Below, piece after piece: positions 37,346-60,730 of a stretch of DNA of 64,000 bases. The translations under genes and the position numbers were made by a program. Numbering within the stretch: position 1 is the first letter of the stretch; each line of letters starts with the position of its first letter. This DNA is from a phage: assembly GCA_017676145.1 (NCBI GenBank), contig GCA_017676145.1_3628.1; one strand, written 5' to 3'. The notes beneath the pieces were generated by a model. It was not told where the DNA came from. It saw only the letters and a list, made by a program, of their open reading frames with translations, and made no database searches.

Positions 37346-37388
37346 TTTATAGCATCCTTATTAGTCATGTTGTGCACCATATTTGTGT

Positions 37389-37417
37389 ATTTTACCATGA
37401 TTATGGTGCATTGTCAA
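37389..37417 (-). promoter_or_regulatory. sigma70-like promoter (TTGACA-17-TAAAAT) with flanking inverted repeat
   Basis: On minus strand TTGACAatgcaccataatcatggTAAAAT; inverted repeat TGCACCATA / TATGGTGCA brackets the -10; located upstream of chaperone/tape measure genes. Confidence 0.5.
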
Positions 37418-49241: not shown

Positions 49242-49560
49242 CGTTTATGTTCAGGCAAGGTCGCTAGTCTTGCCCCGCCATTTTCAGGCAGCTGCATGTC
49301 TCCATGCAGACCAGACTATATCTTATAAGCTATAACAACAGCTTACCCTCCCGTTTCGAATCGCTTGATTCTACGTCTTTCGACTAGTCGTTGAACGTTC
49401 ATCCTCTCGGATGCTTCGCTGCGGATTATCTAAATCAACACTCTGTTACCATACCTTCGATCTCTCTTCGAAGCCTCTATTATGTTACCATAACAGGTTG
49501 GTGGTGTTAATAATAAAGATTTCCCCGCAATTAGGGAGGTTTTACGAGAGCTACAAATTA
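49242..49560 (-). mobile_element. group I intron 1 in terminase large subunit gene (no ORF)
   Basis: Minus-strand P AATTGCGGGGAA (49521-49532), Q AATCCGCAGC (49418-49427), R GTTCAACGACTA (49385-49396), S GATATAGTC (49316-49324); exon ends GGT followed by TAA, as in T4 td-type introns. Confidence 0.75.
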
Positions 49561-49986
49561 ACCCTCATCGAAGCAAACCATGGTGTACTCAAGCCCTTGA
49601 TGGTTAAGCTTATCTTGGACATACTCCATGTGGCAGTATTTTACAACGGCCCCTTTTTTGCTCCTGTCCCACTTGCCAGTGCTCGGATCAAACCGTGGAA
49701 AAATAAACTTATGATCCTTCTCTCTGAACTTTGGTTTAATGTTTTCAGGCAGATCACTGTAAATAGCTACTGCTTTAGGCCATAGACCTCCTTCACCCTC
49801 CAGCTGCGGGGTTGTTCTTCGGAACATAACCACAGAGCTGTGTGGGTCATCAATAATTTTAAGTGGCATTAGCTGCAAGAGGAACGACTTGCCAGAACCG
49901 GCTGCACCTCCGATCACCAAAATATCTGCATCGTTCTCAAGGATCATCTTCTGCTTTTCAGAACACGGTCCGTAAATCTTAGACAT
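49561..49986 (-). CDS. terminase large subunit, exon 1 (ATPase domain)
   Basis: Walker A GGAAGSGKS and Walker B MVCFDEG; start ATG overlaps the o-spanin stop (TAATG). Confidence 0.75.
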
Positions 49987-51089: not shown

Positions 51090-51166
51090 TGGTCTCCACG
51101 GAGTGATTCGAACACTCGACCTCCTGATCCCAAATCAGGCGCTCTACCAAGCTGAGCTACGCGGAG
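51090..51166 (-). tRNA. tRNA-Pro (anticodon UGG)
   Basis: Manual cloverleaf: acceptor CTCCGCG/CGTGGAG (C1-G72), D-arm GCTC/GAGC, anticodon loop TTTGGGA, T-arm GAGTG-TTCGAAT-CACTC, encoded CCA. Confidence 0.8.
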
Positions 51167-51177
51167 TATTTATAATT

Positions 51178-51252
51178 TGGTGGCCCTGGGTGGAATTGAA
51201 CCACCGTCTGGCGATTATGAGTCGCTTGCTTGAACCTTCCAGCTACAGGGCC
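51178..51252 (-). tRNA. tRNA-Met (anticodon CAU; elongator Met or Ile2 type cannot be distinguished)
   Basis: Manual fold: acceptor GGCCCTG/CAGGGCC, anticodon loop CTCATAA, T-arm GGTGG-TTCAATT-CCACC, encoded CCA. Confidence 0.75.
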
Positions 51253-51253
51253 A

Positions 51254-51329
51254 TGGTGCTGATGGCAGGACTTGAACCTGCAACCTATTGATTACAAATC
51301 AATTGCACTACCGATTGTGCTACATCAGC
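51254..51329 (-). tRNA. tRNA-Thr (anticodon UGU)
   Basis: Manual fold: acceptor GCTGATG/CATCAGC, D-arm GCAC/GTGC, anticodon stem ATTGA/TCAAT with loop TTTGTAA, T-arm GCAGG-TTCAAGT-CCTGC, encoded CCA. Confidence 0.8.
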
Positions 51330-51335
51330 AAAAAG

Positions 51336-51440
51336 GTGCTAGGTGATGGAATCGAACCACCTATGTATTCAACGACTACCTCGTCTATTTTCAGGATTAA
51401 AAATCCTCGCCCTTGCCAAAGGGCTTACCTAGCGCAATAT
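51336..51440 (-). ncRNA. tRNA-like element, non-canonical (pseudo-tRNA or small stable RNA)
   Basis: Has 7-bp acceptor-like stem GCTAGGT/ACCTAGC, D-like arm GCCC/GGGC and T-arm GGTGG-TTCGATT-CCATC, but no 7-nt anticodon loop and ~30 nt extra between anticodon-like and T arms; CCA not fully encoded. Confidence 0.35.
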
Positions 51441-51531
51441 GTTGACCATGTGGCTAGTCGGCGATGACGACTGTAACATTTGATAATCCGGTTCTGCTTC
51501 CGGCTTTCGCTTAATTACAAGGTCAACAATG

Positions 51532-51622
51532 TGGCGGAGAGTAATGGAATCGAACCATCATCGAGTCATCCTCAACGGGACGGTTTTCAAGACCGCTTGA
51601 GCACCATTGCTCCCTACCCTCC
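51532..51622 (-). tRNA. tRNA-Ser (anticodon UGA), type II with long variable arm
   Basis: Acceptor GGAGGGT/ACTCTCC, anticodon arm GCGGT-CTTGAAA-ACCGT nearly identical to E. coli tRNA-Ser(UGA) as recalled, ~20-nt variable arm, discriminator G, encoded CCA. Confidence 0.75.
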
Positions 51623-51736
51623 TTTATAAATTACACTGATAATGACACTGATTTTCGAGCAGTTAGTGACTAGTATAAACGACGATAAATATCAATGCCA
51701 TTATCTGTATGATTTATGCATTTAAAAATATAAATT

Positions 51737-51824
51737 TGGTGGTGAGTGATGGAGTCGAACCACCCGAATCGCAATGATAACAGATTTACAGTCTGCCCCG
51801 CTACCCCTACGGAATTAACTCACC
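51737..51824 (-). tRNA. tRNA-Tyr (anticodon GUA), type II
   Basis: Acceptor GGTGAGT/ACTCACC, anticodon stem CAGA/TCTG with loop CTGTAAA, long variable arm, T-arm GGTGG-TTCGACT-CCATC, encoded CCA. Confidence 0.75.
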
Positions 51825-51954
51825 TAAATACTAATATTTAAATTCTTTTTAAAATAGCTAGTGTTCTCACCACTAACTATGAGGTATCGGTAAAGTGGTT
51901 ACCGCCACTTGCCGAAGATTTACTCTGCTAAAGTAAGCTACATTAAAAAGAACT

Positions 51955-52029
51955 TGGCACCCCGTACTGGACTCGAACCAGTGTCAACGGCTTAGAAGGC
52001 CGCTGCTTTATCCACTAAGCTAACAGGGC
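51955..52029 (-). tRNA. tRNA-Arg (anticodon UCU)
   Basis: Acceptor GCCCTGT/ACGGGGT (two G-U pairs), D-arm GCTT/AAGC, anticodon stem GCGGC/GCCGT with loop CTTCTAA, T-arm ACTGG-TTCGAGT-CCAGT, encoded CCA. Confidence 0.7.
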
Positions 52030-52125: not shown

Positions 52126-52464
52126 TTAACTATTGCCAACAGGCTGTATCTCTGTGGTAAATGGCATAAAAGGTGCTGGTTTTTCAGCCTCTTCTACTAC
52201 CACCTCTTCCTCTTCACCAAACATCTCATCATATTCTTCCTGCATTCGGTCTGCCTTATCAAGGACATACTCTGCAATGCTTTGACGAATATTTTGCTTG
52301 GTTTTCGGATCCAACATCAGCTCTCTTAAAACTTTGTGAGCTTCTGGAACCATCGCTATAAAAGATTCCTTCATATCAAGAATGTTCTTCTCTAGCTGAA
52401 TGGCGTTGGACTCCTCTTTCAGAGGTCTGCCTCTACGGCGACGCTTTTTAGTTGTATCCGCCAT
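52126..52464 (-). CDS. basic/acidic bipartite protein with AT-hook-like KKRRRRGRP motif (112 aa)
   Basis: ATG at 52464 with GGAGG RBS preferred over the listed 52584 start; highly acidic C-terminus; directly upstream of the tRNA array. Confidence 0.5.
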   Translation of the reverse strand: MADTTKKRRRRGRPLKEESNAIQLEKNILDMKESFIAMVPEAHKVLRELMLDPKTKQNIRQSIAEYVLDKADRMQEEYDEMFGEEEEVVVEEAEKPAPFMPFTTEIQPVGNS

Positions 52465-52492
52465 GTTTCCTCCATTATCACGTGATAGGTGG

Positions 52493-52521
52493 ATTTTATC
52501 ACGGCAAATACTGATTGTCAA
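52493..52521 (-). promoter_or_regulatory. sigma70-like promoter (TTGACA-17-TAAAAT) with downstream 12-bp perfect palindrome
   Basis: On minus strand TTGACAatcagtatttgccgtgaTAAAAT; palindrome TATCACGTGATA (52476-52487) lies between the -10 and the RBS. Confidence 0.55.
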
Positions 52522-52809
52522 GTTCGCCGCAGGGTGGTATTCCCTGCGACTTGCCCAGCGTCCTGGACCAGAAAGACCCAACAAGTGGGTTACCAGAGAC
52601 CCATTACCGCGCTTTGGCTCGACCTTATTACAGGTTGGCTGGGGTCACATCGTCATGTGCTGGCTGCCCCTACCATTTTAAGTGTGGTGCACTATCAAGC
52701 CCTCTAAGGGGAACTCAGCATTCTCCGAACCCTGTTTCAAAGCATCCGGAGATAAAGCCATCAAACTCATCTTTAAATTGGATATTCATCATGATACACG
52801 AAAACAACC

Positions 52810-53052
52810 TCATTGTAAAGCACAAATAAATAAAACATACTTAATTTGTTTGTTATCGGGCTCAGGGTAGAAGTAGAAGATCTTGCTATCACCAATCTGA
52901 ACACCACCATCCCAACAACATAAACCATAACCCGTATTCATACAAGCTAAGTCGTTGGCAAAATCTATTGCATCATCTAGTGCACGAAATTCACCTTCAT
53001 CTTCTAAATAATCCTCATTCATGGAACGGAAAACGAGCTTAACCTTAAACAT
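52810..53052 (-). CDS. hypothetical protein (80 aa)
   Basis: Co-oriented small ORF. Confidence 0.4.
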   Translation of the reverse strand: MFKVKLVFRSMNEDYLEDEGEFRALDDAIDFANDLACMNTGYGLCCWDGGVQIGDSKIFYFYPEPDNKQIKYVLFICALQ

Positions 53053-53128
53053 AGCATTACCTGTAGACCTCGTAAGTTAAAATTGTATCACATCATATTG
53101 CAGATCTTATCAGGTAACATTATTTTTG

Positions 53129-53906: not shown

Positions 53907-54410
53907 AACTGCCTCCTCTTCAAGTTATAGAAAAACTCACTGTATCGCTTTGTAACGAGCTTTTCTATCAAACTGGTGCGATTGCCTTACTTGGTATAGT
54001 TTACGCAGCTGTGTGGCGATTTAGGGGCCTTCCTGTCCGTTTCCACACATAAACTTTAACTAAACTCGCGCGGGAGGCTCTCAACCGACTCCTTACGGCG
54101 CTGGCAAGCTTTCGTCGGTGGTCCACATTAGTGCTCGGCCTTTGGCCTGCGCTATCGCTTCGCTCCCACACATGTTAACAGTCCTGCATGTATGCACTCC
54201 TGTCATTGTGTGCACTATGGAGGCCCGGCATCTCGCCCCTCGTAGGCGAGTGCCAATGAAGGGCCGACACTACCAATAGTAAGTAATAAATTTAAAACAT
54301 GGTACTTAGGATCTAGTATATTCTACATAAGTTAAGTATATGTACTTTAGTACCATAAGTACTAGATCTTTTATTTTTTATTATTTAGTTATTTTAGTTA
54401 TATTCTTTAT

Positions 54411-54496
54411 GTGTCCGTATTGCGGACAGTTAGTGTCCGTATTACGGGCAGATGTGTCCGCGTGACGGACAGTAGTGTCCGTATCACGGACAGTTA
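54411..54496. repeat. array of four tandem ~21-22 bp repeats, each an imperfect palindrome TGTCCG-N5-CGGACA (iteron/operator-like)
   Basis: GTGTCCGTATTGCGGACAGTTA / GTGTCCGTATTACGGGCAGAT / GTGTCCGCGTGACGGACAGTA / GTGTCCGTATCACGGACAGTTA; roughly two-helical-turn spacing; adjacent to a ~120-bp AT-rich tract (54290-54410). Confidence 0.7.
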
Positions 54497-54567: not shown

Positions 54568-54918
54568 CTAACCAGTTGTTGACATTCGAATAACCTCTTC
54601 TGGTGGCAAAACTTTGGAAAATGTGCATCTTTTACCTCTCCCTTGTGTGGATATTTCAACCACTCCTGCACATTCTAAAGTTTTAACGCACGCTGCTGCT
54701 TTTGTTTTCTTTATCCCAACATCTGCTGCAATTTTCCTTGTGCTGGGTGTGAAGCGTGAATTTCCTCCAAGCTTATACCAGTTGTGCAGGTAGCAGTATA
54801 CGATCTTGTCATACAAGTCAAGAACAACAACCTCCCCGGTTGTGTCATTCAAAACTTTTGACATAGACAGTATTTCAAGGGGGACTTTAAGATATAGCAG
54901 CTTATCCCCATCTTTCAT
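54568..54918 (-). CDS. small putative DNA-binding protein (HTH-like, 116 aa; assigned from sequence appearance only)
   Basis: Segment STRKIAADVGIKKTKAAACVKTLECAGVV reads as a helix-turn-helix recognition region; gene ends ~70 bp from the repeat array. Confidence 0.45.
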   Translation of the reverse strand: MKDGDKLLYLKVPLEILSMSKVLNDTTGEVVVLDLYDKIVYCYLHNWYKLGGNSRFTPSTRKIAADVGIKKTKAAACVKTLECAGVVEISTQGRGKRCTFSKVLPPEEVIRMSTTG

Positions 54919-59191: not shown

Positions 59192-59447
59192 TCTTGCTAA
59201 ACCTGTAGAAGCACACCAGTTTGATGGAAGCTCTTCATCAGTATCTGATCTGCAACGGTGGATTGATACAGGTGTGTTTACATCGTCACCTGTTCGAACC
59301 AGAGATATTCTTCGCATGTGTGAGCTTGTCGAGCCGTTTGGTAACCTTGTCTTGTACCAAGGGGATTGGTTAGTTGACTTTATGGGAGACTGGTTGGTAA
59401 TGAGCAAAGAAGAGATGTTTAAAATTTTTAAGGAAGAGGCTGAGTAA
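59178..59447 (+). CDS. hypothetical protein (89 aa)
   Basis: Overlapping co-oriented ORF; stop overlaps ligase start (TAATG). Confidence 0.45.
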   Translation: MPLFNLAKPVEAHQFDGSSSSVSDLQRWIDTGVFTSSPVRTRDILRMCELVEPFGNLVLYQGDWLVDFMGDWLVMSKEEMFKIFKEEAE

Positions 59448-60730
59448 TGCATCAGATCAAAACAACACTGTACGCACTGAACAAAGATGGCAGCTACCAA
59501 CAGTGGAAAGTATTCACGGATGGTGATAAGGTTATCGTAGAGTTTGGCAAGCTTGATGGTAAACTGCAATACAAAGAGACGATCTGCACACCTAAGAACG
59601 TTGGTCGTGCCAATGAAACTACAGCTGAGCAACAGGCTGAGCTGGAAGCGATCAGTAAGTGGGAAAAACAAGTCCGTCTGGGGTATGTTGAAAATATGGA
59701 AGATTGCGAGCAGGGTGTTGACCTTTTACCCATGCTGGTGCATGACTACCTGAAGCGTGGAAAGGCACTTAAATTACCTTGCTGGATCTTGCGTAAGTTA
59801 GATGGCCTTCGTCTACTTGTTGTTTTCCAAAATGGTGAGCCTAAATTTATTTCCCGTGGTAATAAGTCCTACCCTATTCAAGGAAAGCTTCTGGAGCAAC
59901 TTCGTTCTTTCCACTTCACCACCGGGATTAAACAGCTCGACGGAGAGATCTATATTCATGGCCTGCCTCTGCAGAAAATAGTGTCTCTTGCTAAACGGTG
60001 GCGCACACAGGAAGAGATTCAGGCCGAGATCGATAAAGACTACGAGGCAGATAAAAAACGCCGTCATGCCGCAATTAAGGCAGGCTTATCAACATACAAA
60101 AACTTCAACAAGGTAGATATTCCTGTTGATGTTGAGCCTGTTCGTGATGATTTGCGTTACGGTGGGTACTGTAGCTACGATCTAGAGTATCACATTTTTG
60201 ATATTCCTAGTGACAAGGTGTGGTGGGATCCAGAAACAGAATCTGGACGCTGCAAGGATCTTATGGATGTAGAAGATACCATTACCACTCTGATGCTTGA
60301 CCATATCAAGGTTGTTGACGCAGAGCTTGCGTACACAGTTGATCATTGCGAAGAATCTGTCGGTGTATTCATGTCCGAAGGGTATGAAGGTACTATCATG
60401 CGTAACTTCTGTGGTAAATACGAATACGGTCAGCGAACATCTGAAGCATTGAAATGGAAAAAGTTCAACGATGCTGAGGTGAAAGTTATTGACGTTGAGA
60501 AAGATAAGAATGATGAAGGTGTTCTTATCTGTGTTGACAAGGAAGGTATTGTTGTTAAAATGAAGATGAAAGGTACGCACGAGGAGCGTAGCTATGACAG
60601 GATGCAGGAAATGATCGGCAAGTTTGTCACCTTCAAATATCAAGCAAGGACAGAAGACAACAACTACCAATTCCCTGTCGGTATCTGCGTCCGAAATGTT
60701 AACCCAGACACTTGGGAGGTGCTGGAATAA
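59447..60730 (+). CDS. ATP-dependent DNA ligase
   Basis: Nucleotidyltransferase motif I KLDGLR, motif III LDGEIYI, motif IV EGTIMR, motif V LKWKK; 427 aa. Confidence 0.75.
   Translation: MHQIKTTLYALNKDGSYQQWKVFTDGDKVIVEFGKLDGKLQYKETICTPKNVGRANETTAEQQAELEAISKWEKQVRLGYVENMEDCEQGVDLLPMLVHDYLKRGKALKLPCWILRKLDGLRLLVVFQNGEPKFISRGNKSYPIQGKLLEQLRSFHFTTGIKQLDGEIYIHGLPLQKIVSLAKRWRTQEEIQAEIDKDYEADKKRRHAAIKAGLSTYKNFNKVDIPVDVEPVRDDLRYGGYCSYDLEYHIFDIPSDKVWWDPETESGRCKDLMDVEDTITTLMLDHIKVVDAELAYTVDHCEESVGVFMSEGYEGTIMRNFCGKYEYGQRTSEALKWKKFNDAEVKVIDVEKDKNDEGVLICVDKEGIVVKMKMKGTHEERSYDRMQEMIGKFVTFKYQARTEDNNYQFPVGICVRNVNPDTWEVLE

Follow-up and report, generated by a model that had tools for sequence, protein, structure and literature searches.

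The 346-bp interval at 52465-52810 of the window (the whole 64,000-nt stretch of phage DNA that was analyzed) is probably a composite of three elements: the end of a coupled small ORF, a structured non-coding RNA of ~190 nt, and the promoter P074. Its most notable content is a family of structured RNAs without an entry in Rfam; the promoter itself had been predicted previously. An initial annotation had presented the interval as a long untranslated leader of ~350 bp without an ORF. Neither description fits. The 346 bp hold part of a 32-aa ORF (52813..52715), and the promoter abuts its gene, with a predicted leader of ~22 nt rather than 350. The sequence upstream of the promoter comprises the ORF end and a separate candidate RNA. 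The coordinates of the features are collected in Table 1.

Table 1. Features of the interval, its flanking gene and the comparison promoter P051
Feature	Position	Strand	Remarks
Promoter P051, inverted-repeat arms 37410-37402 and 37381-37373	37373..37417	-	sequence, rV5 listing
Gene gp074, 112 aa	52126..52464	-	phrog_3330
Shine-Dalgarno (SD) GGAGG, 4 nt before ATG	52469..52473	-	
12-bp perfect palindrome TATCACGTGATA	52476..52487 (52487-52476)	.	covers predicted start ~52486; includes -10-like GATAAT
7-bp inverted repeat CGTGATA (52503-52497)/TATCACG (52487-52481)	52481..52503	-	brackets the -10
Promoter P074: TTGACA, 17 nt, TAAAAT, TG extended -10	52493..52521	-	sequence, rV5 listing
Candidate structured ncRNA, ~190 nt conserved	52523..52714	-	G+C 52-56%
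Three 3' hairpins, 52590-52576, 52566-52555 and 52548-52528	52528..52590	-	weak U-rich tail on the first only
44-nt core motif, three helices	52598..52641	-	covariance model 63.7 bits
Helix GGGG/CCCC enclosing hairpin CACAU-GACG-AUGUG	52641..52670	-	structure kept in T4, WG01 and L023
5' domain CCCCUUAGAGGGCUUGAUAGUGCACCACACUUAAAAUGGUA	52671..52711	-	nearly identical in the divergent L023-L026 clade
32-aa ORF (MRLFSCIMMNIQFKDEFDGFISGCFETGFGEC)	52715..52813	-	ATGA start/stop coupling to gene 52810..53052
Weak promoter-like site TTTACA-17-TATCAT	52791..52819	-	

Genomic setting

The 1.4 kb around the interval was 96-99% identical to 119 full-length genomes of Vequintavirus (rV5-like) coliphages, and by its sequence the window is from an rV5-like coliphage of this genus. 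Genes in this part of the window run on the minus strand, with a tRNA cluster (51090-52029) just downstream of the interval. Eighteen GenBank records of the MG0656xx series, labelled 'Campylobacter phage' (A135, C9, C2 and others), were 97-99% identical to rV5-like coliphages here; these labels look wrong, or samples were mixed. A literature search covering Vequintavirus transcript maps, the sequences themselves and vs.8/denV gave nothing relevant.

Two side observations concern the tRNA cluster and its surroundings. A group I intron (49292-49570, minus strand; Rfam RF00028, 85 bits) lies ~1.5 kb from the cluster, and the annotation of ECML-10 has an HNH endonuclease near that position. Within the cluster, both on the minus strand, 51335-51433 is a 99-nt tRNA-like gene called by ARAGORN with a 4-base anticodon, and 51740-51824 is a tRNA (Tyr in relatives) that was found by Rfam and missed by ARAGORN.

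At the 5' end of the interval, the 32-aa ORF of locus L022 carries three synonymous third-position differences from that of the window, and its last codon has an amino acid replacement. This codon also varies in L001, L002 and L021. We read this part of the interval as the end of a small ORF that would be translationally coupled to the upstream gene. The ORF is annotated in NHEP1 and not in ECML-10. The following stretch, 52714-52523, contains no ORF, and its G+C content exceeds that of the surroundings (~40% elsewhere). Folding of the entire 346-nt region was not better than that of shuffled sequences (z -1.4), with neither strand significant.

A candidate phage-specific structured RNA

The middle part of the interval would be a structured non-coding RNA of ~190 nt built around a 44-nt core. 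In the core, helix P1 pairs 52638-52636 with 52603, 52601 and 52600, leaving G52602 bulged; P3 pairs ACCU (52635-52632) with AGGU (52625-52622), and P4 pairs GC (52618-52617) with GC (52610-52609). The hairpin flanking the core on its 5' side keeps its structure with varied sequences, namely CCUCAU/AUGAGG in T4, CCUCAC/GUGAGG in WG01, CACAU/AUGUG in rV5 and CUACG/CGUAG in L023.

By blastn, the core was 91-95% identical to intergenic DNA of T4-like phages. There the element lies directly upstream of vs.8 or internal-protein genes, regardless of the preceding gene, and its T4 version matches more than 1,000 GenBank phage records, fully or partly. Klebsiella phage K65 has two copies. In the T4 reference (L099, NC_000866) the annotated vs.8 gene (64253..64912) spans the element (L005 1248-1291), and in the WG01, JS10, KIT03 and RB14 annotations vs.8 starts after it. 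The true start of T4 vs.8 is probably ~93 nt further downstream. The conserved RNA likewise suggests that the ~31 leading codons of this gene model represent RNA structure instead of protein.

A search of IMG/VR with a pattern for the core returned 68 stretches. Five were discarded as probable chance matches, and the others include contigs that have no relation to T4 or rV5. In the resulting alignment (A2, 53 distinct sequences), the P1 pairs 4-42, 5-41 and 6-39 were 98% paired with three to four pair types each, and the P4 pair 25-32 occurred as CG, UA and GC. Covariation in this alignment scored 0.381; shuffled controls scored 0.10, and slid partners no higher than 0.064. Mutual information picked out the three pairs that close the motif, with the bulged G, together with one pair in the second hairpin. 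The 'invariant' bases of the core were fixed by the search pattern, and the unbiased evidence consists of the covarying positions and the BLAST-derived T4-like set. P3 (ACCU/AGGU) is accordingly invariant in A2, its bases being pattern-fixed. The covariance model found divergent second copies in L055 and L064, and the L055 copy has GCCU/AGGC in P3, a compensatory change of the first pair from A-U to G-C. These compensatory changes support the predicted helices P1 and P4 (from A2) and P3 (from the second L055 copy). G-U pairs place the motif on the strand of the genes and tRNAs. L055 (5095-5249) and L064 (9022-9177) are Karamvirus-like T4 relatives with two tandem units ~110 nt apart, the second of which has a shorter junction and G-C replacing A-U.

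Rfam 15 gave no match in the region, whether the gathering thresholds or a cutoff of E<=10 were applied, nor did any family match the motif in 15 other loci. To our knowledge none of the known small ribozymes and riboswitches compared (twister, hammerhead, HDV-like, pistol, preQ1 and others) fits the core, in agreement with its absence from Rfam. A tRNA or tmRNA remnant was rejected on empty ARAGORN and Rfam tRNA-model searches of 52523-52714, and mimicry of a host RNA on a blastn search of 5,426 E. coli genomes, which gave no match. Scanning 596 Gb of bacterial genomes for the pattern returned four matches, all with GGTCCAG in G+C-rich sequence; judged by eye, they lie in coding-looking sequence and were read as chance. 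A second match of the model in the window (60276-60318, minus strand, 27 bits) is antisense within the 427-aa ORF 59447..60730 and has a broken P3, and is probably spurious despite its low nominal E-value. On the sequence comparisons, the 44-nt core probably belongs to a phage-specific family of RNAs that has no Rfam entry.

Possible roles of the RNA

Outside the T4-like phages, nearly all loci had tRNA genes close to the motif, which without exception shared their strand. In L079 it starts 45 nt past tRNA-Ser and ends in an apparent intrinsic terminator (G+C stem, U run). L023-L026 have a TTGACA-17-TATACT promoter directly upstream of the RNA, and the gp074 promoter follows the RNA. Both layouts argue for a separate RNA gene. 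The window has no good promoter directly upstream, so here the RNA would come from P075 or from the weak site at 52819. Other Vequintavirinae genera carry a tRNA gene in this position, and the model finds no copy in them.

We considered that the conserved RNA might be a cis-acting leader of the next gene, serving as a riboswitch, a protein-binding operator, or an antitermination or mRNA-stabilizing element. In T4-like phages it always stands 15-90 nt before a start codon (of vs.8 or an internal-protein gene) within a polycistronic unit, these copies carry a conserved 3' hairpin near the SD sequence, and alternative pairings of the CCCC/UUCCC strand exist. However, no protein family shared beside the motif across phage types was found: the downstream genes are unrelated, as are vs.8 and gp074. 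The separate promoter of the next gene after the RNA in L023-L026, the terminator after it in L079 and the two tandem copies in some phages also speak against a leader. We regard a cis role as possible though rather doubtful, and weakly favor a trans-acting RNA.

The shared 44 nt could also act as DNA, either as a recombination site or mobile cassette or as a homing-endonuclease target exchanged between co-infecting coliphages. This would account for the high identity of the core between the unrelated T4-like and rV5-like phages and for its site in the hyperplastic internal-protein/vs region of T-even phages, ahead of differing genes. It is nevertheless very unlikely in view of the compensatory changes with their strand-specific G-U pairs, the constant placement of the motif on the tRNA/gene strand, and its occurrence in widely differing uncultivated phages with co-variation confined to the helices.

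Returning to a trans-acting RNA, our guess is a stable molecule co-expressed with the phage tRNAs. We tentatively propose, as one possibility among those considered, that the core is the center of a new phage-specific class of small RNAs (in T4, rV5-like phages and uncultivated tRNA clusters) that acts in trans on a conserved host component. It could, for example, be a decoy for a defense or modification enzyme that targets tRNA or other RNA; one lead in that direction is a UGU conserved within a hairpin loop.

Small stable RNAs encoded with phage tRNAs have a precedent in the species 1 and 2 RNAs of T4 (rnaC and rnaD). Like the motif, these are non-coding and structured and lie on the tRNA strand in or next to tRNA clusters. 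The motif has no sequence relation to them, and the single T4 copy of the motif is near vs.8, outside the tRNA region. In contrast to rnaC and rnaD, the motif core is shared across unrelated phage groups. The abiF RNA motif in L042 (3624-3655, minus strand; RF03085, 45 bits), an uncultivated phage that also has the new motif, lies beside a tRNA and is another non-tRNA RNA inside a phage tRNA cluster.

A decoy RNA from a related phage group is the pseudo-ToxI of the Vequintavirinae phage PhiTE (PMC3594212). Pseudo-ToxI resembles the motif in being a small phage non-coding RNA with possible action in trans. ToxI-type RNAs are tandem 36-nt repeats that copy a bacterial antitoxin, whereas the motif mostly occurs as one copy and the bacterial searches gave no credible counterpart.

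Promoter P074 and its gene

The consensus-like promoter proposed in the initial annotation was found where it had been claimed, on the minus strand, as a sigma-70 promoter. The -35 hexamer TTGACA occupies 52521-52516 and the -10 hexamer TAAAAT 52498-52493, with TG before it. The order on this strand is TTGACA-17 nt-TAAAAT-CCACC-TATCACGTGATA-AAT-GGAGG-AAAC-ATG (52464), and the hexamers match the sigma-70 consensus at 11/12 positions. With at most one mismatch, TTGACA-N17-TAAAAT occurred six times in the window against 0.5 expected, an excess which indicates that the promoter class is real. The -10 element lies 28 nt from the ATG of gene 52126..52464. Judged from the spacing, transcription would start at ~52486, 7 nt past the -10 and inside the palindrome. 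P074 would thus be a sigma-70 extended -10 early promoter that provides gp074 with the short leader given above.

Conservation of the site extends to four other clades. Upstream of the gp074 homologue in Mydovirus, Seunavirus, Certrevirus and one unclassified clade, TTGACA-17-TGnTAAnAT stands at a distance of 20-30 nt from the ATG, and the place of a P074-type promoter is kept in five clades altogether, before orthologous genes. The rV5 genome paper (Kropinski et al. 2013, PMC3606486, Table S4) predicts this same site as P074, with two different spacer bases, and also lists 37389-37417 as P051, 53132 as P075 and 52116 as PtRNA. The rV5 promoters P074, P075 and PtRNA share with P074 here TTGACA, a 17-bp spacer, TGnTAAAAT and a place just before an early gene. 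Nothing of substance differs between P074 in the two phages, and in both it is a predicted promoter.

The gp074 protein has a basic N-terminus (KKRRRRGRP), three predicted helices and an acidic tail. KRRRG-GRPLKEESNAIQLEKN is conserved in its N-terminal part and PFTTEI at its C-terminus. A Pfam search found no domain, and the AlphaFold model, which has three helices, is of low confidence (pLDDT 67, pTM 0.33). The only matches in profile and Foldseek searches were non-significant ones (E 0.19 and 0.25) to the small terminase of phages NV1 and PaP3, which we treat as a lead only. Given the lack of a domain, the low-confidence model and the sub-threshold level of the terminase matches, gp074 could not be recognized as a repressor.

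The second promoter cited in the initial annotation, at 37389-37417, also has the TTGACA-17-TAAAAT design with a different inverted repeat bracketing its -10, as claimed. This promoter, P051 (37417-37389), has the same hexamers as P074 and a 9-bp inverted repeat, TGCACCATA/TATGGTGCA, around the -10. The two sites share generic sigma-70 hexamers only and their inverted repeats are unrelated, so the idea of a common repressor-controlled class is not supported. P051 has a strong terminator ahead of it and serves a different gene block, and PMC3606486 lists it also among the late-type TGGTAAAATA promoters. The inverted repeat of P051 favors neither strand, and its right arm is upstream of the SD sequence and does not cover it. 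P051 fits neither an operator nor masking of the ribosome binding site (RBS).

The palindrome and the operator question

A perfect palindrome between the -10 and the RBS had been proposed as an operator. The palindrome, TATCACGTGATA, is present; it is not statistically unusual, and the operator role was left unsupported. The window held seven perfect 12-bp palindromes, fewer than the 15.0 ± 3.6 of Markov-1 simulations. Matches to TATCACGTGATA with at most two mismatches numbered two against 2.6 expected, and the exact copy is single. What is notable about the palindrome is only its position at the predicted transcription start. Among the 119 close Vequintavirus genomes the promoter segment was 96.7-100% identical, so conservation there carries no information. 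The palindrome is missing in Mydovirus, Seunavirus, Certrevirus and the unclassified clade, all of which keep the promoter and the gene; loci L016-L020 lack it. In the nearest outgroup (L023-L026, from IMG/VR, with gp074 69-73% identical), TATCATATGTTC stands in its place and the dyad is degenerate.

An operator would imply a dimeric repressor of phage or host origin, possibly gp074 itself, that blocks RNA polymerase at +1, with P051 in the same class. The perfect dyad symmetry over the start site is in keeping with this, as are a two-mismatch copy, TATGATGTGATA, at the equivalent place after the -10 of P075, the local frequency of GTGATA (52.4-54.5 kb) and the basic, AT-hook-like N-terminus of gp074. 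Across the window, however, GTGATA is not enriched (41 against 32.6 ± 5.8), and neither a helix-turn-helix nor a Pfam DNA-binding domain was seen in gp074, whose model is of low confidence. With a single site, near-matches at chance level, an unrelated repeat at P051, and no palindrome in any clade beyond close Vequintavirus despite retention of the promoter and gene, we consider an operator decidedly unlikely.

Lambda-type operators have the half-site TATCAC... and a length of 17 bp. TATCAC likewise occurs in each half of the palindrome, a resemblance that is not evidence. The palindrome differs in being 12 bp long with no central spacer and in being a single site rather than a tandem set, and no cI/Cro-like gene was seen. 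Identity with a Fur box or a lambda operator was rejected on by-eye comparison for poor match or wrong spacing.

Elsewhere in the window, four tandem 21-22-bp units with the dyad TGTCCG-N5-CGGACA lie at 54411-54496, just after gene 54568..54918, which is annotated in relatives as a transcriptional regulator, replication initiation protein or DNA-binding protein. Beyond the array come a stretch of 22-31% G+C (54270-54400) and then an ORF-poor block of 56% G+C (53990-54275; RNA fold z -2.4). The array and its flank resemble an origin or a set of operators, possibly with another non-coding RNA alongside. Such a repeated protein-binding layout contrasts with the operator reading of the single palindrome.

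The palindrome may also be functionless, either a chance dyad or a by-product of three overlapping CGTGATA copies that also form the TG-extended -10. Palindromes of 12 bp are commoner in random sequence than in the window, this one is not conserved past close relatives, and CGTGATAA is present both at the -10 and at the palindrome. Set against this, a chance fall exactly at the +1 of a strong promoter has a probability of ~3% by our rough estimate, and relatives have an inverted repeat of different sequence at the same place. We view lack of function as somewhat improbable, though less so than an operator.

A proposed sense-strand hairpin over the ribosome binding site

Our preferred reading is that the palindrome, at approximately +1 to +11, is not an operator and would form part of a sense-strand inverted repeat that connects the -10 region and promoter spacer with the RBS and ATG. 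In RNA read through from upstream, a hairpin comprising 52505-52460 is predicted that includes the 7-bp repeat. The spacer segment GCCGUG pairs with CAUGGC at the start codon, UCCA pairs with UGGA of the SD sequence, and the palindrome is the apical stem. In such read-through RNA the hairpin would cover the RBS or serve as a site of processing. Transcripts beginning at P074 would be free of the 5' arm and open to translation. RNase III-type processing is a second possibility, raised by the length of the hairpin.

The predicted fold was stronger in the sense strand of the window (-15.2 kcal/mol, z -2.95) than in the antisense strand (-11.3, z -1.4). L023 and L025 have no palindrome but do have a 21-bp hairpin that involves the promoter spacer, -10 and 5' UTR and ends on the SD sequence. 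Its sense fold reached -27.0 and -25.8 kcal/mol (z -5.6 and -4.8), respectively, against -16.5 and -15.2 for antisense, a difference that arises from several G-U pairs. At L020, a locus from a Pectobacterium phage, the fold reached -24.4 kcal/mol (z -3.9), and folds of L016, L017 and L019 were non-significant (z -0.4 to -1.5). The spacer variants GCCGUG, GCUAUG (rV5) and GCUGUG (L022) all still pair with CAUGGC. The RBS or start codon is thus complementary, on the sense strand specifically, to bases upstream of +1 in the window, the L023 clade and L020; L016, L017 and L019 show this only weakly. Complementarity that is kept while the sequence changes and that is specific to one strand points to RNA rather than to a protein operator.

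The modelled probability of a paired SD sequence was 0.65 in read-through RNA and 0.19 in promoter-initiated RNA for P074, and 0.91 and 0.43, respectively, for the neighboring P075, a contrast which is only suggestive since longer RNAs pair more in general. P075 (53104-53132) shows a P074-like promoter-in-hairpin layout, its spacer UUACCUG being complementary to CAGGUAA before the gp075 start codon (53053-53075, minus strand). Only weak terminator-like sites were found upstream of P074. The hairpin of the window is itself modest in strength, and RBS masking fails for P051 and leaves the perfect 12-bp palindrome at the apex unexplained. With modest confidence, we find that an RNA hairpin masking the RBS in read-through transcripts fits the folding models better than a shared operator does.

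RBS-occluding hairpins with an internal promoter occur at T4 gene e (lysozyme), gene 49, soc and I-TevI. As in the hairpin predicted at P074, their 5' arm precedes the transcription start and their 3' arm covers the RBS or start codon. Translation in these T4 devices is limited to RNA that begins at the internal promoter, and the same logic is proposed for P074. The T4 internal promoters are late and give temporal control, whereas here the upstream and internal promoters both look like early sigma-70 promoters. The hairpin predicted in the window is also weaker than the T4 hairpins.

Implications

P074 is an ordinary early promoter, predicted before, and the operator idea can be dropped. The interval instead contributes a conserved RNA, absent from Rfam, that is common to two of the best-known coliphage groups and many uncultivated phages. 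This motif adds a recurrent non-tRNA member to phage tRNA clusters, and the RNA is directly testable in T4 and in the rV5-like phages of the BASEL collection.
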